32,000 nucleotides of DNA from Candidatus Borrarchaeum yapensis (GTDB lineage: Archaea; Asgardarchaeota; Sifarchaeia; Borrarchaeales; Borrarchaeaceae): positions 33,587-65,586 of the forward strand of contig JAEOSF010000013.1 in NCBI GenBank assembly GCA_016840515.1. The letters are read 5' to 3'. This document shows, piece by piece, positions 11,352 to 32,000 of the stretch; position 1 is the first letter of the stretch, and every line of letters starts with the position of its first letter. The translations under genes and the position numbers were made by a program. Under the pieces are notes generated by a model. It saw only the letters and a list, made by a program, of their open reading frames with translations, ran no database searches and had not been told where the DNA came from.

Positions 11352-12020
11352 CTATAAAAGCTTAAGTTGATTTAGTAGTTGAAATGTATGCGTCTTTTTT
11401 TCGATTTCATATTTTTTGATAAGGGCAAGATCTTGAGAAGTATCAATATCAAGCATTAATTTTGGTGAATTAAATATAGTATATGAAACATGAAAATAGC
11501 GAGCGATTCTAGTATGAATTATGCTACTATTTGATCCATAATAAACATGTGGAATTACTTCTGGAGGTTTTCTTAACAAAATATTGGTACCGTTGTCTTT
11601 TGAAGGAGCGATTACGACCCATGGACGACTTATTGCCTTTTTAATAATAAGATCAAGAAGACGTGGTGTAATTAGAGGTATATCTCCAAGAATAACAATC
11701 ACACCCTCAGCACCCTGTTTTTCTAACTTGTGTGTCCCCTCAGAAACAGCAATATTTAATCCTTGCTCTTTTGCCTCAAGGATTGTGTTAGCACCTAATT
11801 TCTTCGCAAGTGTAACTATCTCCTGATCTGGTGACATTACAAAAGTTTCGGTAATATTCTCTGATTCTAAAGTTGATTGAACTACATCGGAGAGCATAGC
11901 TTTGGTGAGCATTTTTCGAGATTCAAGAGATAAATTGCTAATACGAGTTTTTGAATTCTCCAATTTCTTCAATGGAATAAGCGCATATATGTTCAAAACA
12001 TCACCGTTTACAGACGTCAA
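11352..12020 (-). CDS. cofC: 2-phospho-L-lactate guanylyltransferase (coenzyme F420 biosynthesis)
   Basis: ALIPLKKLENSKTRI, VILGDIPLITPRLLD, VIAPSKDNGTNILLRKPPEVIPHVYYGSNS, matching the CofC pattern. Confidence 0.8.
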   Translation of the reverse strand: MTSVNGDVLNIYALIPLKKLENSKTRISNLSLESRKMLTKAMLSDVVQSTLESENITETFVMSPDQEIVTLAKKLGANTILEAKEQGLNIAVSEGTHKLEKQGAEGVIVILGDIPLITPRLLDLIIKKAISRPWVVIAPSKDNGTNILLRKPPEVIPHVYYGSNSSIIHTRIARYFHVSYTIFNSPKLMLDIDTSQDLALIKKYEIEKKTHTFQLLNQLKLL

Positions 12021-13884: not shown

Positions 13885-14658
13885 TTATAAATAATTGTAA
13901 GGTTTCATTGTAGCCTTCCCAATTTTCCCAACTATTTCAGGATTTTTTATAGCAGCCCTAGCAATTGAAAATGCATCGGCACCGGCGTTCAGCATTTGTA
14001 GTGCTGAATTAATGTCTTTTACAGAATTATTACCTATCAAAAATGTATCGACAGAGTTGGATATCCTTTTTATAACGTCTAAGTCAGCATAAGGAGATCC
14101 AGGTTTCATTGCATCGACATGAATAGCATCTGCACCTGCTGTAACCATATTTTTCACTAAAGTCACTTCATCAACGATGTTGGCCCGAATTTTAACAATT
14201 AGGGGAATATTCACATTATTTTTGAGGATTGTAATCCACTGACACAATTTTTTGGAGTTTTTTAGGAGTGCCTGTCCAGTTCCTAGATCCATAATTTCTG
14301 GTTGTCTACAATGTGCATTTAGTTCAATAGCATCCGCACCTGCATCCTGTGATATTTTTGCTGCCAGAAGTAACCCATCTCTTGAGGTAACACGTATATT
14401 TATATTTACGAGAGTTTTTCCTTCACGGGCAATAGAAACTTGACGTTCAGTATATTCTGGCAGTTCCTCAAGATCTATAATAAATTCTGGCCTTTCTCTA
14501 GTTGTGATAAGTTTTGCTGCGCTAAGCGTTGCCTTATCAAAATTAAATCCGCCAAGAGTAATCATGCCAGCTCCACCTTTCGCAACTCGTGCACAAAAAT
14601 CACCATTAGTAACGCCCGCTATTGCGGATAGTATTGCTGGATTTTGCAACTTTAACAT
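13885..14658 (-). CDS. TIM-barrel flavoprotein-like protein (dihydrouridine synthase / dihydroorotate dehydrogenase-like), coupled to cofD
   Basis: ITLGGFNFD, ADAIELNAHCRQPEI, VKIRANIVDE, AGADAIHVDAMKPG, FLIGNNSV, AGADAFSIARA; overlaps the 3' end of cofD. Confidence 0.65.
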   Translation of the reverse strand: MLKLQNPAILSAIAGVTNGDFCARVAKGGAGMITLGGFNFDKATLSAAKLITTRERPEFIIDLEELPEYTERQVSIAREGKTLVNINIRVTSRDGLLLAAKISQDAGADAIELNAHCRQPEIMDLGTGQALLKNSKKLCQWITILKNNVNIPLIVKIRANIVDEVTLVKNMVTAGADAIHVDAMKPGSPYADLDVIKRISNSVDTFLIGNNSVKDINSALQMLNAGADAFSIARAAIKNPEIVGKIGKATMKPYNYL

Positions 14659-15509
14659 GTTTTTTCCTCAATTAAACGAAGGATTTCTTGAGCAAGATTG
14701 ATTTTATCATCAAGACTCTTCATTATGATATTAGTAGAAAACACAGATATTCCTAGTTCTTCAATTTGAGGAACCAATCCCGTATCAGTACTATGTATAA
14801 TTAGAACGTCTAAGAAGTTAGAATAGATCTTTGCAATAGCGTACGGAGAAACACTAAGGTTTTGGGTTTCCATGAGTTGACCAGCAGGGCCGCTCAATGG
14901 TTGTTCTCCGATTATGGGGGAAATCGCGATTTTCATGCCTTGTGTCCTTTCTAAGGCAGTTTTGATACCTTTTACTTCCAGGATAGGTCCTATTGAGGTC
15001 ACAGGATTACTTGGTCCGATAATTATGGCATCACTTTCCATAATTGAATCAATTACATCTGGGGTTGGTTCTGCTTTCTTAATTCCTTCAAATTCAACCG
15101 AAAATACCTTTACATTTGCATGTTCCCTTACCCAAAACTCCTGAAAATTCAATTTACCCTTGTCAGTAAAAACCATTGTTGTGACTTTTTGGTCAGTCAT
15201 GGGAATTATTTGAGGCTTTATATTCAAGCGCATGCAGACATCATTGATAATTTCAGATAAAGAAAGACCTTCTTTTAATAAACGCGTCCTATGGATATGA
15301 AGTGCGAGATCACGATCCCCTAATTGAAACCATGGATCATAACCATACAGTTTTAACATATCAAGGCAATTATAAGTGTCGCCTTTTATTCCCCACCATT
15401 TTTCTTCATCTAAAAAACTTTTTAGGCAGTAGAGGACAGAATCAATGTCTGGGCAGACATAAAGACCATAAAAATAGTAATCATCTGCAGTATTACAAAT
15501 TATAGTCAA
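14652..15509 (-). CDS. cofD: 2-phospho-L-lactate transferase (coenzyme F420 biosynthesis)
   Basis: GDRDLALHIHRTRLLKEGLSLSEI, IIGPSNPVTSIGPILEVKGIK, IAISPIIGEQPLSGPAGQLM are CofD hallmarks. Confidence 0.9.
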   Translation of the reverse strand: MTIICNTADDYYFYGLYVCPDIDSVLYCLKSFLDEEKWWGIKGDTYNCLDMLKLYGYDPWFQLGDRDLALHIHRTRLLKEGLSLSEIINDVCMRLNIKPQIIPMTDQKVTTMVFTDKGKLNFQEFWVREHANVKVFSVEFEGIKKAEPTPDVIDSIMESDAIIIGPSNPVTSIGPILEVKGIKTALERTQGMKIAISPIIGEQPLSGPAGQLMETQNLSVSPYAIAKIYSNFLDVLIIHSTDTGLVPQIEELGISVFSTNIIMKSLDDKINLAQEILRLIEEKTC

Positions 15510-15645: not shown

Positions 15646-16215
15646 CTATTCTACAACGACTCGATAGACGATATGTAAACCTGCAGTAGGGCTTTCTCGA
15701 TATATTTTTACTATTCGTCCAGGTTTTGCCCCTATAGCTTTTGCTGCGGGATCCGCGGCTTGAATTGCAGGAAGTTGAAATTTGTTAATGTTATAGTGTT
15801 TTAAAACTTCATTCGCTTCCTTTTCAGATAATAATTCATGTTTTGGAACAAGAACATGCTCAAAAATATTAAAAATAGGATACTTTGTTGGAAGCAATTC
15901 AATATTCTTCTTTTTTGATTCAGCCTTTGCGGCTGGCGTATATCTTTCTAAAGTTGCAAGTAGCGCCTGATCTACACCATGTTTTTTCATTGCTTTATCT
16001 AATGCTCGTACTAATGCAACACCGACAACATTTTTGCTAGGAATGCGAACTAAAAACTTTAGTTCTTCTTTATCCTCTTTCTTTTTTGCGAGGATATCGA
16101 TTTCTGACTCTTGCTCTTCAATCGATTCGACTTTATATTTTCTATTTTCAAGCAGTTGTAATACTCCTTCTTTCACACGTTTCATCGTTTGACTCAAGGC
16201 CAGCGCCTCCCTCAA
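15646..16215 (-). CDS. rpoH: DNA-directed RNA polymerase subunit H / Rpb5 with additional N-terminal domain
   Basis: C-terminal EHVLVPKHELLSEKEANEVLKHYNINKFQLPAIQAADPAAKAIGAKPGRIVKIYRESPTAGLHIVYRVVVE is classical RpoH/Rpb5. The ~110 aa N-terminal extension resembles the eukaryotic Rpb5 jaw domain. Confidence 0.92.
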   Translation of the reverse strand: MREALALSQTMKRVKEGVLQLLENRKYKVESIEEQESEIDILAKKKEDKEELKFLVRIPSKNVVGVALVRALDKAMKKHGVDQALLATLERYTPAAKAESKKKNIELLPTKYPIFNIFEHVLVPKHELLSEKEANEVLKHYNINKFQLPAIQAADPAAKAIGAKPGRIVKIYRESPTAGLHIVYRVVVE

Positions 16216-25910: not shown

Positions 25911-26192
25911 ATGTCCGGAAGAGACAACAGCATATACATAGGCAGAAAGCCATTAATGAATTATGTCTTGGCAGTCGTAACTCAACTCAATCAAGGCTCT
26001 GACTCATGCATCCTCAAAGCAAGAGGACGAAGCATATCTAAAGTAGTTGATGTCGCTGAGATCGTTCGACAACGCTTTATGAAGGATATTGTCGATGTAG
26101 AAAAAATCGAGATTGATAGTGAGGAGTTAACCGAAGAAGGAGGAAGAACACGCAGCGTAAGTACTATGGAAATTACGTTGAAAAAGAAATAA
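25911..26192 (+). CDS. Alba DNA/RNA-binding chromatin protein, copy 1
   Basis: [48 protein letters not shown], classical Alba. Confidence 0.93.
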   Translation: MSGRDNSIYIGRKPLMNYVLAVVTQLNQGSDSCILKARGRSISKVVDVAEIVRQRFMKDIVDVEKIEIDSEELTEEGGRTRSVSTMEITLKKK

Positions 26193-26279: not shown

Positions 26280-26564
26280 ATGTCCGAAAAAGACAGCAAT
26301 ATATACATAGGCAGGAAGCCAGTAATGAACTACGTCCTTGCGGTCGTCACTCAGCTGAATCAAGGCGGTTTTGAATCTTGCACGCTTAAAGCGAGAGGAA
26401 GGAGTATCTCCACGGCTGTTGATGTCGCTGAGATCGTTCGACAACGCTTTATGAAGGATATTGTCGATGTAGAAAAAATCGAAATAGGTAGTGAGGAGTT
26501 AGCCGAAGAAGGGGGAAGAACACGCAGCGTAAGTACTATAGAAATTACGTTGAAAAAGAAATAA
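26280..26564 (+). CDS. Alba DNA/RNA-binding chromatin protein, copy 2
   Basis: Nearly identical to copies 1 and 3; [45 protein letters not shown]. Confidence 0.93.
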
Positions 26565-26651: not shown

Positions 26652-26933
26652 ATGTCCGCAAGAGACAGCAATATATACATAGGCAGGAAGCCAGTAATGA
26701 ACTACGTCCTTGCAGTCGTCACTCAGCTGAATCAAGGCTCTGACTCATGCATCCTCAAAGCGAGAGGAAGGAGTATCTCCACGGCTGTTGATGTCGCTGA
26801 GATCGTTCGACAACGCTTTATGAAGGATATAATCGATGTAGAAAAAATCGAGATTGGATCAGAAGAACTTGATGAAAGTGATGGTAGAACTCGCAGTGTA
26901 AGTACAATCGAGATCACGTTGAAAAAGAAATAA
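26652..26933 (+). CDS. Alba DNA/RNA-binding chromatin protein, copy 3
   Basis: As above; C-terminal variation [23 protein letters not shown]. Confidence 0.93.
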
Positions 26934-28556: not shown

Positions 28557-29912
28557 TTGGAGTCCTATGATGTTTCTCTTAAGTTAATAAACTATGATCT
28601 TATTCTTCAACCTCATGTTTTTCTCGATGTAACCCCTATACAACATCTGTTAGAATATGATGCAAAATTCAAAAATTTTAAAGCACTACCTATGTTTTTT
28701 CCAGAGATTGTGCAATTTCTTACTTCAAGATATGTCGTGAAAATCGATTTTACTTATGGAGAAAAACTTAGTTTTGAAACGGTGCCAAGTTACTCTCTAC
28801 GTCCTTATCAAGAAGATGCACTAAGTGAATGGATCAAAAATGATTATAGAGGTATAATTTGCCTTCCTACAGGTACTGGAAAGACATTCTTGGGTCTGAC
28901 AGCAATTCATCAAACGAAAAACAGAACATTAATCATCGTTCCGACTATTAATCTTTTGCACCAGTGGCGTTGTAACGTTATTGAAGGATTAGACATATCT
29001 AAGGAAAAAATAGGCATTTGGGGAGGAGGAAAGCAAGAATTAAATGAAATTACAATTACAACATATGATTCAGCTCACATTTACATAAAACGATTTCAAA
29101 ACGCTTTTAACCTTCTTATTTTCGATGAAGTACATCATCTCCCTGCTCCAACTTATCGCGTAATTGCAGAAGGGACAATTGCTTCAAAAAGGTTAGGATT
29201 GAGTGCAACCCCGGAAAGAAGCGATGAATTACATCGAGATCTTGATATTCTTGTTGGAAAAGTCGTTTATCGACTTGAGCATGAAAAATTAGTGGATGAT
29301 GGGTACGTTGCGCCTTTTGAGTTAAAAACAATAACAATAGAACTAGCAGAAGATGAAAAAAGAAGATATGATGCTTTAGACAAAGTTTATCAAGATTATG
29401 TTAAAAAATACCATGTTTTTGATTTTGAGAAATTAGTTTTGCGATCTGGGCGTGACAAAAAGGCAAGGAATGCTTTACTAGCACGCCAAGAGGCCAGAAA
29501 GATTTCATTTGGCAGTGGAAGAAAATTGGATGTACTTGAAGAACTCTTGATACAGCATCAGCAGGATAGAGTAATTATCTTTTGTGAATTCAACGAGATA
29601 GTGCACGAGATAGCAAAGAGGTTTCTTATCCCCGAAATCACACACAAAACCAAGTATGAAGAACGAAAAACATATTTGGAGAGTTTTAAAAACGGTCAGT
29701 ACTCTAAACTTGTTACAGGACGCGTGTTGGATGAAGGGTGGGATGTTGATGCCAACATAGGCATAATCATTAGCGGTTCAGGTTCAAAAAGACAGTTTAT
29801 TCAGAGGCTAGGTAGAATTTTACGACCTTCTGACACACATTTGAAGGCAATCCTATATGAACTTGTTACAAAGGAAACACTTGAAGTTTCAACCGCATCC
29901 CGAAGGAAATAA
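28557..29912 (+). CDS. XPB-like SF2 DNA helicase
   Basis: LRPYQEDALSEW, ICLPTGTGKTFLG, LLIFDEVHHLPAPTY, LGLSATPERSD, VTGRVLDEGWDVDANIGIIISGSGSKRQFIQRLGRILRP. Confidence 0.88.
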   Translation: MESYDVSLKLINYDLILQPHVFLDVTPIQHLLEYDAKFKNFKALPMFFPEIVQFLTSRYVVKIDFTYGEKLSFETVPSYSLRPYQEDALSEWIKNDYRGIICLPTGTGKTFLGLTAIHQTKNRTLIIVPTINLLHQWRCNVIEGLDISKEKIGIWGGGKQELNEITITTYDSAHIYIKRFQNAFNLLIFDEVHHLPAPTYRVIAEGTIASKRLGLSATPERSDELHRDLDILVGKVVYRLEHEKLVDDGYVAPFELKTITIELAEDEKRRYDALDKVYQDYVKKYHVFDFEKLVLRSGRDKKARNALLARQEARKISFGSGRKLDVLEELLIQHQQDRVIIFCEFNEIVHEIAKRFLIPEITHKTKYEERKTYLESFKNGQYSKLVTGRVLDEGWDVDANIGIIISGSGSKRQFIQRLGRILRPSDTHLKAILYELVTKETLEVSTASRRK

Positions 29913-30040: not shown

Positions 30041-31231
30041 ATGTCAGCGGATGACACACGTGTTTATATGGATTATACTGCTTCATCACCAGTTGATCCT
30101 AGAGTTATTGAGGCTATGATGCCCTTTTTTACTAGAAAATTTGGAAATCCCTCTTCTTTTCACTCATTTGGTGCTGAAGTGAGAGAACCGATGGAAGAGG
30201 CCCGAAACAAGATAGGCCAATTAATCGGTGCTGAAGACCCGAAACGCGAGATTATCTTTACATCAGGTGCGACAGAAAGTAGCAATATCGCAATAAAGGG
30301 TACTGCATATCGCGCTAGAGGTAAGAACCACATCATCACCACTGCTGTAGAACATATGTCTGTAATAAACATCACTAAAGCGCTTATGAAAGAGGGTTTT
30401 GAAGTAACTGTAATACCTGTGGATGAATATGCAATGGTAGATCCTGGTGCTATTAGTGACGCAATAACTGAAAAAACATTTCTAGTCTCTGTGATGTACG
30501 CAAATGGTGAAGTGGGTTCTATACAACCTTTTAAGGAAATTGGGAAGATAACACGGGAAAATAAGATATATCTTCATACAGATGGCGTAGCCGCAATTGG
30601 AAAGGTTCCAATAAATGTTATTGATGAAAATATCGATCTTCTTTCTATTTCATCAAATGATATTTATGGCCCAAAAGGTACTGGTGCATTATACGTCCGA
30701 AAAGGTGTGAGCATTCAAGGAGTTTTACAAGGTGGAGGGCAAGAAAGAGGAATTAGAAGCGGTACTGAAGATATTCCGAGTATAGTTGGATTTGGCAAAG
30801 CAGCTGAAATTATCCAAGCTGAAATGACACAAGAAAACAAACGCATAGAACGAATTAGGGATAAAATTATTTCTGGAATTTTGGACAATATCCCCGAATC
30901 ATATTTAAATGGTCACCCCACTAAAAGACTTCCAAATAATGTGCATGTAAGGTTTAGTTATATTGAAGGTGAGTCTCTTATCCTTGACTTAGACGAAAAG
31001 GGTATTGCGTGCAGTTCGGGCTCAGCATGTGCTGCTAAAACATTGGAACCTTCTCATGTGCTTAGAGCTTGTGGCTTACCTCATGAATTGGTGCATGGAT
31101 CAATTCTATTTACAATGGGAAGATGGACTAAAGAAGATGATACAGATCGTGTAATCGAAGCTTTGCCCCCTATTGTTAAAAGACTTAGGTTATTATCTCC
31201 GTTGACTCCAAAGGAATTAAAGGAGGCTTAA
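30041..31231 (+). CDS. iscS: IscS/NifS-family cysteine desulfurase-like protein with non-canonical PLP site (His-Lys replaced by Asn-Asp)
   Basis: VYMDYTASSPVDPRVIEAMMPFF, GNPSSFHSFG, FTSGATESSNIAIKG, TTAVEHMSVIN, YGPKGTGALYVRKG, CSSGSACAAKTLEPSHVLRACG; followed 3 nt after the stop codon by iscU. Confidence 0.9.
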   Translation: MSADDTRVYMDYTASSPVDPRVIEAMMPFFTRKFGNPSSFHSFGAEVREPMEEARNKIGQLIGAEDPKREIIFTSGATESSNIAIKGTAYRARGKNHIITTAVEHMSVINITKALMKEGFEVTVIPVDEYAMVDPGAISDAITEKTFLVSVMYANGEVGSIQPFKEIGKITRENKIYLHTDGVAAIGKVPINVIDENIDLLSISSNDIYGPKGTGALYVRKGVSIQGVLQGGGQERGIRSGTEDIPSIVGFGKAAEIIQAEMTQENKRIERIRDKIISGILDNIPESYLNGHPTKRLPNNVHVRFSYIEGESLILDLDEKGIACSSGSACAAKTLEPSHVLRACGLPHELVHGSILFTMGRWTKEDDTDRVIEALPPIVKRLRLLSPLTPKELKEA

Positions 31232-31234
31232 AAA

Positions 31235-32000
31235 GTGGCGGGAATTTATTCAGAAAAAGTTTTAGATCATTTCAGGAATCCTCGTAATGTTGGCGAGTTG
31301 GAAGACACTGAAGACGTTGGGATTGGAAAGGTGGGCAATCCTGTGTGTTTAATACCTGAAACATTAATTCATATGAATAGTCATCTCAACCGTATTGAAA
31401 TTGCGTCTTCCAAAGACCGAGTACTTACTCACAATGGTATGTATCACAAGGTAATTCACAGGACAGAAAGAGAGTATGATGGCGACATTCTGATTCTAAA
31501 GAACAAGTTTGGAGAAGTTACAGTAACGCCTGATCATATGGTTCTAGCTATCAAAGTGCCTAAAGGAGACAAGTTCTTGCGAACCAAACACAGAAAAGAA
31601 CTTTTATCTGCTTGGTATCACGCTGAAGATCTTAGGAAAGGCGATATAGTCCTTTACCCCATTCTGAAAGAAACTAAAGATATGGAATTCATTGACATCG
31701 AAATCAGGAAATCAAAATGGGATTTTTGTAGTAAACCGATTCCAAAAAAGATACCTGTTAGTGATAACTTTCTTAGGTTATGTGGTTATTTCATTTCCGA
31801 AGGCCATCCAAGAGAAGAGCCTTCCAAGACATATATCGAGTTCAGTCTAAACATCAAAGAAAGAGATATCGAAGAAGATATTAGGAGAATAACTAAGAAC
31901 TTGTTCAATATCGATATTAAAATTAGTGAAAAACCAAAGAAAAAGACGCGACAAGTGTTTATCTATAATGCAGTTCTAACAAGATTCTTCAAGAAGCTAT
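31235..32000 (+). CDS. iscU: IscU iron-sulfur scaffold precursor interrupted by an intein; truncated at right edge; absent from the ORF track
   Basis: GTG 31235 after AGGAGG. N-extein MAGIYSEKVLDHFRNPRNVGELEDTEDVGIGKVGNPV is the IscU N-terminus. It breaks off after GNPV where IscU continues CGDxMxL. Confidence 0.88.
   Translation, partial: MAGIYSEKVLDHFRNPRNVGELEDTEDVGIGKVGNPVCLIPETLIHMNSHLNRIEIASSKDRVLTHNGMYHKVIHRTEREYDGDILILKNKFGEVTVTPDHMVLAIKVPKGDKFLRTKHRKELLSAWYHAEDLRKGDIVLYPILKETKDMEFIDIEIRKSKWDFCSKPIPKKIPVSDNFLRLCGYFISEGHPREEPSKTYIEFSLNIKERDIEEDIRRITKNLFNIDIKISEKPKKKTRQVFIYNAVLTRFFKKL
31346..32000 (+). mobile_element. Intein within IscU, with DOD (LAGLIDADG) homing endonuclease block (3' part beyond window)
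   Basis: Starts CLIPETLIHMN (block A); block B GEVTVTPDHMVLAI; endonuclease-like LCGYFISEGHPREEPSKTYIEFSLN. Confidence 0.88.

Follow-up and report, generated by a model that had tools for sequence, protein, structure and literature searches.

The window analysed here, a stretch of 32,000 nucleotides from Candidatus Borrarchaeum yapensis (contig JAEOSF010000013.1, forward strand), ends inside an iscU gene that directly follows a gene for a NifS-type cysteine desulfurase. This iscU gene is interrupted by a coding insertion located between Val37 and the first cluster-ligand cysteine of the encoded iron-sulfur (Fe-S) scaffold. The insertion is very probably a canonical class-1 intein with a two-motif LAGLIDADG homing endonuclease, which would be spliced out of the IscU precursor and would spread by homing.

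A first-pass annotation, made from the window letters, had placed an intein in IscU immediately before the first cluster-ligating cysteine, in the frame that starts with GTG at 31235. This frame translates up to the window end exactly as had been given. In the part inside the window, the Pfam profiles NifU_N (residues 5–38, E 3.5e-8) and LAGLIDADG_3 (residues 181–254, E 7.6e-6) both scored above their curated cutoffs, and the N-terminus matched the NifU and IscU equivalogs of NCBIfam. The N-extein was 89–97% identical to the N-termini of intein-less IscU proteins of 147–150 aa (P0015–P0019).

Contigs reaching beyond the window end were found through exact-sequence lookup of the NifS protein. 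The lookup gave six contigs, each from a separate sample (two from ENA assemblies, three from JGI metagenomes, and one from a Logan run), and over the shared iscU stretch (38–766 nt) none of them has a mismatch to the window. Upstream of iscU, the window sequence is matched to within 0–2 nt by contigs L001, L003, L004, L005, and L006, while the high mismatch count of L002 is probably an alignment offset caused by an indel. The complete open reading frame (ORF), present in L001 and L003 with 0–1 mismatches to the window over all shared bases, comprises 527 codons and divides into a 37-aa N-extein, a 380-aa intein, and a 110-aa C-extein beginning with CGDLMW (Table 1).

An assembly chimera or an unrelated gene fusion could be suspected from the metagenome-like window and from an ORF cut at the window end, and nothing further speaks for it. 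Contigs from six samples share the junction, which excludes a chimera. In addition, 51 genomes show the same architecture, the insertion keeps the reading frame exactly, and alleles without an intein run across the site colinearly and without a gap; a non-intein fusion was rejected too, and the probability left to either explanation is negligible. A bacterial-type Hint or toxin domain was rejected as well.

Table 1. Coordinates of the interrupted iscU gene and its elements; positions refer to the window unless contig L001 is named.
Feature	Position	Strand	Remarks
nifS/iscS-type cysteine desulfurase gene	30041..31231	+	Pfam Aminotran_5, E 1.8e-74; directly 5' of iscU
Shine-Dalgarno-like AAGGAGG	31220..31226	+	8 nt 5' of GTG, within nifS 3' end
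Precursor ORF	L001 8776-10359; stop at window-equivalent 32818	+	527 aa
IscU N-extein, 37 codons, MAGIYSEKVLDHFRNPRNVGELEDTEDVGIGKVGNPV	31235..31345	+	NifU_N profile positions 2-34, E 3.5e-8
Intein, part inside the window	31346..32000	+	first 218 of 380 residues; remainder in L001 and L003
Complete intein	window-equivalent 31346-32485 = L001 8887-10026	+	precursor residues 38-417, 380 aa, CLIPETL ... EAFCLHN
Cys1 codon, block A	31346..31348	+	predicted first-step splicing nucleophile; Cys in 47/47 intact homologues
Block B T-P-D-H, intein T61...H64	31526..31537	+	T 46/47, H 47/47
First LAGLIDADG motif LRLCGYFISEGH, intein 143-154	31772..31807	+	presumed catalytic Glu152
C-extein, 110 codons	L001 10027-10359	+	precursor residues 418-527, begins CGDLMWVFIKV

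Residue conservation was counted over 47 intact copies of the intein. The Cys1 start, block B (TVTPDH), and the LAGLIDADG block (LCGYFISEG) named in the first-pass annotation proved to be real features of the family. In the first LAGLIDADG motif (LRLCGYFISEG), G147 is present in 47/47 copies, E152 in 45/47, and G153 in 46/47. The sequence beyond position 32000, which the first-pass annotation had called for, adds the second LAGLIDADG motif (LLYGLWKGDG, with D251 in 46 of the 47 copies) and, at the intein C-terminus, blocks F and G, where ...VYNLEVNKDHSFTTEAFCLHN is followed by CGDLMW in both L001 and L003. All 47 copies have H379, N380, and the CGD that follows the junction. The C-extein supplies the remaining cluster ligands and includes FGCGSAIATSS and KMHCSNLAADAL. 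The structural predictions of the first-pass annotation are thereby all borne out, and none of the outcomes it had named as refuting (absence of a His-Asn/Cys junction and of an IscU C-extein, or a chimera) was obtained. In the full protein, Pfam recognised NifU_N in two parts, Intein_splicing, LAGLIDADG_3 in two stretches (E 1.6e-18), and Hom_end, and the NCBIfam model intein_Cterm scored 26.1 bits against a cutoff of 15.6.

Joining GNPV to CGDLMW in silico yielded a product of 147 aa with the predicted junction peptide VGNPVCGDLMWVFIK. This product is identical to the intein-less proteins P0016 and P0015 at 139/147 and 136/148 positions, respectively, and it matches NifU_N with E 1.2e-51. 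The cutoff of the NifU equivalog TIGR03419 (187.9) is passed by the spliced form with 193.6 bits, whereas the precursor falls short of it with 174.6. It also aligns end to end with the IscU of Methanothrix thermoacetophila (7c8m, E 8e-54), with GNPVCGDLM, GCG, and HCS all kept, and the +1 cysteine corresponds to residue 38 of that chain. Since this residue is the first ligand cysteine of the solved IscU, the +1 nucleophile of the intein is the first cluster-ligand cysteine, as had been expected from its position. We take it to be the equivalent of Cys37 in E. coli IscU. Solved IscU proteins, 7c8m included, are without an insertion, unlike the precursor described here.

In deposited IscU variants, mutations at the CGD Asp (9wcv) and at the HCS His (7c8n) mark these two residues as parts of the cluster site. 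According to a 2026 review, three cysteines hold the IscU cluster at a site that also comprises D39 and H105 (PMC13423590). The spliced product has three conserved cysteines as well as the Asp and the His of the two motifs. Across the intact copies, all IscU ligands are retained in 44/47 C-exteins, the three exceptions being truncated, which argues for continued selection by the host on the spliced protein. In two loci from metagenome-assembled genomes (MAGs) of Methanomassiliicoccaceae, L040 and L045, the intein is intact and the C-extein stops after 30–32 residues, reflecting either gene decay after invasion or indel errors of assembly.

These data also bear on the alternative that the intein no longer splices, so that this iscU copy would be a pseudogene and Fe-S assembly would be served by SUF or by a second IscU. 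Some homologous loci have indeed decayed (L042 with seven stops, L055 frameshifted, L027 with one stop), and three have the truncated C-exteins. At the locus described here, however, the ORF is intact over 527 codons with all splicing residues present, the exteins have kept 95% identity to a homologue without an intein and retain all ligands, and the sequence is identical in the contigs from six samples. A dead insertion is therefore considered very unlikely.

With 380 residues standing between its first 37 residues and the cluster-binding core, the precursor cannot work as a scaffold. Splicing, which we infer to be constitutive, would begin after translation with an N-S acyl shift at Cys1, followed by transesterification onto Cys+1, cyclisation of the terminal Asn, and an S-N shift. 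Ligation would yield an ordinary IscU of 147 aa, in which the former +1 nucleophile would serve as a ligand cysteine. The first-pass annotation had proposed that Fe-S assembly could depend on splicing; this is correct as far as the dependence goes, but the dependence is nothing special, as it holds for any intein in an essential site. For mobility, the endonuclease would cut intein-less iscU across the sequence GGN AAY CCN GTN ↓ TGY GGN GAY (the arrow marks the insertion point here and below), and repair of the cut allele would copy the intein in. Homing into so conserved an iscU site would explain the spread among distantly related anaerobes. An intein that requires Cys+1 would be expected to settle on the most conserved cysteines of its hosts, i.e., on functional ones.

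Distribution of the intein was determined by scanning an intein-only alignment against one genome per GTDB species (about 185,000 representatives). This yielded 51 intein loci, mostly in uncultured archaea and bacteria, and the insertion point is identical in all of them: G(N/S)xx↓C ... HN↓CGD. By record title, the archaeal hosts include Asgard lineages (Ca. Sifarchaeum marinoarchaea, Atabeyarchaeia, and LC30), Pace-, Woese-, and Nanoarchaeota, as well as Methanomassiliicoccales and Methanomethylicaceae; the bacterial titles name several lineages of Patescibacteria/candidate phyla radiation (CPR) and one Omnitrophota MAG. Complete genomes are among the carriers, such as the Atabeyarchaeia chromosome CP147779.1. 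A protein search returned about 14 intein-bearing relatives together with intein-less IscU. Scanning 1.84 billion cluster representatives without a profile gave 20 clusters at E <= 1e-30. The full-length clusters inspected (nine at this threshold plus P0139 at 3e-28) were all IscU with this junction, and the remaining ones at E <= 1e-30 were short fragments or had an IscU-like intein start position. A scan of viral contigs gave only distant inteins (22–24% identity), none of them within IscU, and one unannotated family was matched in PHROGs.

Empty sites are found in close relatives. The intein-less proteins P0015–P0019 read GNPV↓CGDLMW colinearly and without a gap, P0016 being the closest of these alleles. 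The locus encoding P0015 (L060) has the same NifS-IscU-DUF790 order, with DNA identities of 90% for the extein, 87% for nifS, and 92% for DUF790. It runs uninterrupted across the insertion point (...AACCCAGTG↓TGTGGAGAC...), with the site lying around GGCAAGGTGGGCAACCCAGTG↓TGTGGAGACTTAATGTGGGTC. Further stages of a homing cycle are represented by mini-inteins that lack an endonuclease (P0014 and P0140), by copies with decayed endonucleases (P0009 and P0188), and by the pseudogenised loci mentioned above.

Similarities of intein and extein are discordant, with a Spearman rho of 0.34 over all pairs. Ca. Sifarchaeum marinoarchaea, to which the organism of the window is probably related, has the nearest intein (83%) and shares 85% identity in NifS and 93% in the extein. 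The next nearest inteins belong to Parcubacteria and Pacearchaeota, with identities of 55–57%, and the exteins of these copies are only 52–54% identical. Conversely, the hosts with the most similar exteins (71–75%) have inteins of just 40–52% identity. The G+C content of the intein is 36.4%, equal to the contig average (36.6%), and the intein has thus not come very recently from a donor of different base composition. The intact endonuclease, the empty sites in close relatives, the mini-inteins, the decayed copies, and the discordance of intein and extein together form the signature of a selfish homing element rather than that of a domesticated switch.

Redox- or metal-sensitive splicing, as suggested in the first-pass annotation, would nevertheless be plausible. 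On that reading the intein would have been retained because its splicing is gated by redox state or metal, so that active IscU would follow oxidative stress or iron and zinc status; Cys+1 could be held by a Cys1-Cys+1 disulfide, by Zn or Fe, or by a nascent cluster on the C-extein ligands. Cys1 and Cys+1 are both invariant, and the C-extein alone holds every IscU ligand (Cys+1, Asp+3, the second Cys, and the His-Cys pair), so that a metal could sequester the +1 nucleophile. An extra cysteine four residues before the intein end (FCLHN) occurs in 25 of the 47 copies, and endonuclease-free mini-inteins persist in some lineages. Conditional inteins also have precedents, namely the M. tuberculosis SufB intein as a sensor of oxidative stress, a redox-trapped intein, and inhibition by zinc (PMC4760082, PMC8891592). 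Among the features of such inteins (SufB of M. tuberculosis and the redox-trapped MoaA intein), the IscU intein has the prerequisite pair of Cys1 and Cys+1.

Any intein with Cys1 and Cys+1, however, has the same redox potential, and none of the measurements requires gating. The additional cysteine is clade-specific and not universal, purifying selection acts on the endonuclease of most copies, and the distribution is patchy, with 51 loci among about 185,000 species representatives. Relatives as close as about 90% DNA identity live entirely without the intein. A domesticated switch is thus regarded as rather unlikely. The same doubtful standing is given to its wider form, in which the intein would be a feedback gate on Fe-S biogenesis, with metal, nascent cluster, or disulfide stalling the splicing reaction and tying the supply of scaffold to metal or redox status.

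A structure was predicted for the homologue P0002 (56% identical) from an alignment of 15 rows; the mean predicted local distance difference test score (pLDDT) was 67.9, with values of 80–98 in the endonuclease core. In a Foldseek search of this model against the PDB, the best match was the TliVMA intein (E 1.7e-16), followed by PI-SceI, PI-PkoII, PhoVMA, and PI-PfuI. After the inteins came free-standing enzymes of the LAGLIDADG family, among them I-DmoI with a target-normalised template modelling (TM) score of 0.64–0.76. The alpha-beta-beta-alpha-beta-beta-alpha fold of the LAGLIDADG core, as in I-DmoI and PI-SceI, was matched by the model. By sequence search, the nearest solved protein was PI-PkoII (E 8e-7).

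Certain points weigh against the interpretation as a canonical, mobile intein. The Pfam profile Intein_splicing is barely over its cutoff (35.9 versus 35.8 bits), and the HINT halves of the P0002 model are of low confidence (pLDDT 40–68), a weakness explained by the 15-row alignment behind the prediction. Position 4 of block F is Asn in 47/47 intact IscU inteins (VYNLEV; intein residue 362, L001 9961–9963). Many well-studied class-1 inteins have Asp at this position, and the kinetics of splicing or the coordination of its steps may therefore be unusual in the IscU family. As for mobility, the discordance between intein and extein could partly reflect differences in rate and not transfer, and some of the automated taxonomic labels of the MAGs look unreliable.

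At the start of the gene, a spacer of 3 nt separates the nifS stop from the GTG of iscU, and the two genes are probably co-translated. The AAGGAGG motif may act as a ribosome-binding signal, judging from the sequence. The desulfurase scored 521.6 bits on the NifS model TIGR03402, slightly below the cutoff of 530.75. A scan for promoters and terminators gave no signal above chance, the scan being ill-suited to archaea. Of the 51 intein-bearing loci, 45 have a nifS homologue upstream in the same orientation. In many loci of the DPANN type, NifS ends 0.9–2.5 kb before the IscU intein and does not abut iscU (L008, L010, L015, L016, L024, L028–L030, L036, L051, and L057), which implies another gene or a longer N-terminal region between the two.

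An XPB-type helicase gene (28557–29912, +) lies closely 5' of nifS-iscU, and two tandem DUF790 genes (L001 10389–12202, +) lie closely 3' of iscU. DUF790 is the Bax1 nuclease, the usual partner of XPB, and the Fe-S assembly pair appears to be wedged within an XPB-Bax1 neighbourhood.

Elsewhere in the window, the region 15646–16215 (-) encodes a 189-aa homologue of RNA polymerase subunit H/Rpo5, which has an additional domain at its N-terminus (Pfam Mrr_cat, E 3e-13), fused to RNA_pol_Rpb5_C. Residues 34–187 of this protein align with full-length eukaryotic RPB5 (Arabidopsis 7eu0_E residues 50–205, E 7.6e-24; human and bovine RPB5 residues 55–209), whereas archaeal RpoH structures cover only residues 114–188. 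This Asgard-related archaeon seems to have an Rpb5 with two domains, as in eukaryotes; the available portion of a 2026 review of archaeal small subunits makes no mention of a two-domain Rpb5 (PMC13257274). Three tandem genes for Alba chromatin proteins of 93–94 aa each are located at 25911–26192, 26280–26564, and 26652–26933 (+), and genes resembling cofC and cofD, of the F420 biosynthesis type, at 11352–12020 (-) and 14652–15509 (-). An RFC large subunit, a P-type ATPase, and a NosD/beta-helix protein are also encoded in the window, and no tRNA genes were found in its 32 kb.

With respect to earlier records, a literature search of partial coverage gave no paper that pairs an intein with IscU or NifU. 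An IscU intein is likewise not mentioned in the main text of the Novikova survey or in the arCOG update, and NCBIfam has no model for an intein-containing IscU. In the source annotations these genes appear as 'hypothetical', 'NifU-like', or partial NifU. As such labels are joined by a precursor score below the NifU cutoff, inventories of Fe-S assembly in these lineages may miss IscU. The intein is apparently an undescribed allele at a new host site, although the element is of a thoroughly known kind and dozens of public genomes contain it. As the central Fe-S scaffold, IscU would thereby join the list of intein hosts beside SufB. The occurrence of the element in Asgard, DPANN, methanogen, and CPR lineages, which have anoxic habitats in common, also records gene flow between them.

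The nearest relatives outside IscU share 32–38% identity over the N-terminal 218 residues of the intein (E 4e-29 to 1e-20) and have the same block layout. Their hosts are a 2-oxoacid:ferredoxin oxidoreductase beta subunit (P0138, WCPG↓CGD), thioredoxin-reductase-like proteins (P0153 and P0160, CA(V/T)↓CD inside a CxxC motif), a thioredoxin-reductase-like fragment (P0146, YCYT↓CDG), and a 4Fe-4S ferredoxin domain (P0147, ↓CIADGIC...CP). Further members of the group are found in a ribosomal protein S19 homologue (P0174, KTH↓C...HN↓CRDM) and in a phage terminase large subunit (P0145). These inteins occupy other host genes at non-homologous sites, and most of those in redox proteins directly precede a cysteine that resembles a cluster ligand or a redox-active residue by its motif. 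The design found in IscU is thus not unique. In P0138 the C-extein begins with ↓CGD as in IscU, which hints at ectopic homing between similar targets. If the feedback gate were real, the IscU and sister inteins together would form a group that uses cofactor-binding cysteines as splice nucleophiles in anaerobes.

Solved inteins with the same HINT domain split by a two-motif LAGLIDADG endonuclease are TliVMA (7qsu/7qss), PI-SceI (1vde), PI-PkoII (2cw7), and PI-PfuI (1dq3), which matched the P0002 model with E values of 1.7e-16 to 2.5e-9 at 15–21% identity. They are distant in sequence, their hosts are V-ATPase, DNA polymerase, and ribonucleotide reductase, and the invariant block F Asn distinguishes the IscU family. 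PI-SceI likewise sits before a conserved cysteine, that of the P-loop of VMA1.

To our knowledge, the SufB insertion is not located directly before a cluster-ligand residue. A splice nucleophile that is itself a cluster ligand was called a rare arrangement by the main prokaryotic survey (PMC4760082), and it makes the IscU intein a clean natural test system for metal or redox control of splicing. The closest functional parallel is the M. tuberculosis SufB (Pps1) intein, which is also a class-1 element with Cys1, Cys+1, and an endonuclease, interrupts a component of an Fe-S scaffold, and makes host function dependent on splicing (PMC8891592). The two differ in pathway and in hosts: SufB belongs to the SUF pathway and its intein is carried by mycobacteria and Ferroplasma, whereas the intein described here resides in an IscU/NifU paired with NifS and is carried by Asgard archaea, DPANN, CPR, and methanogens.

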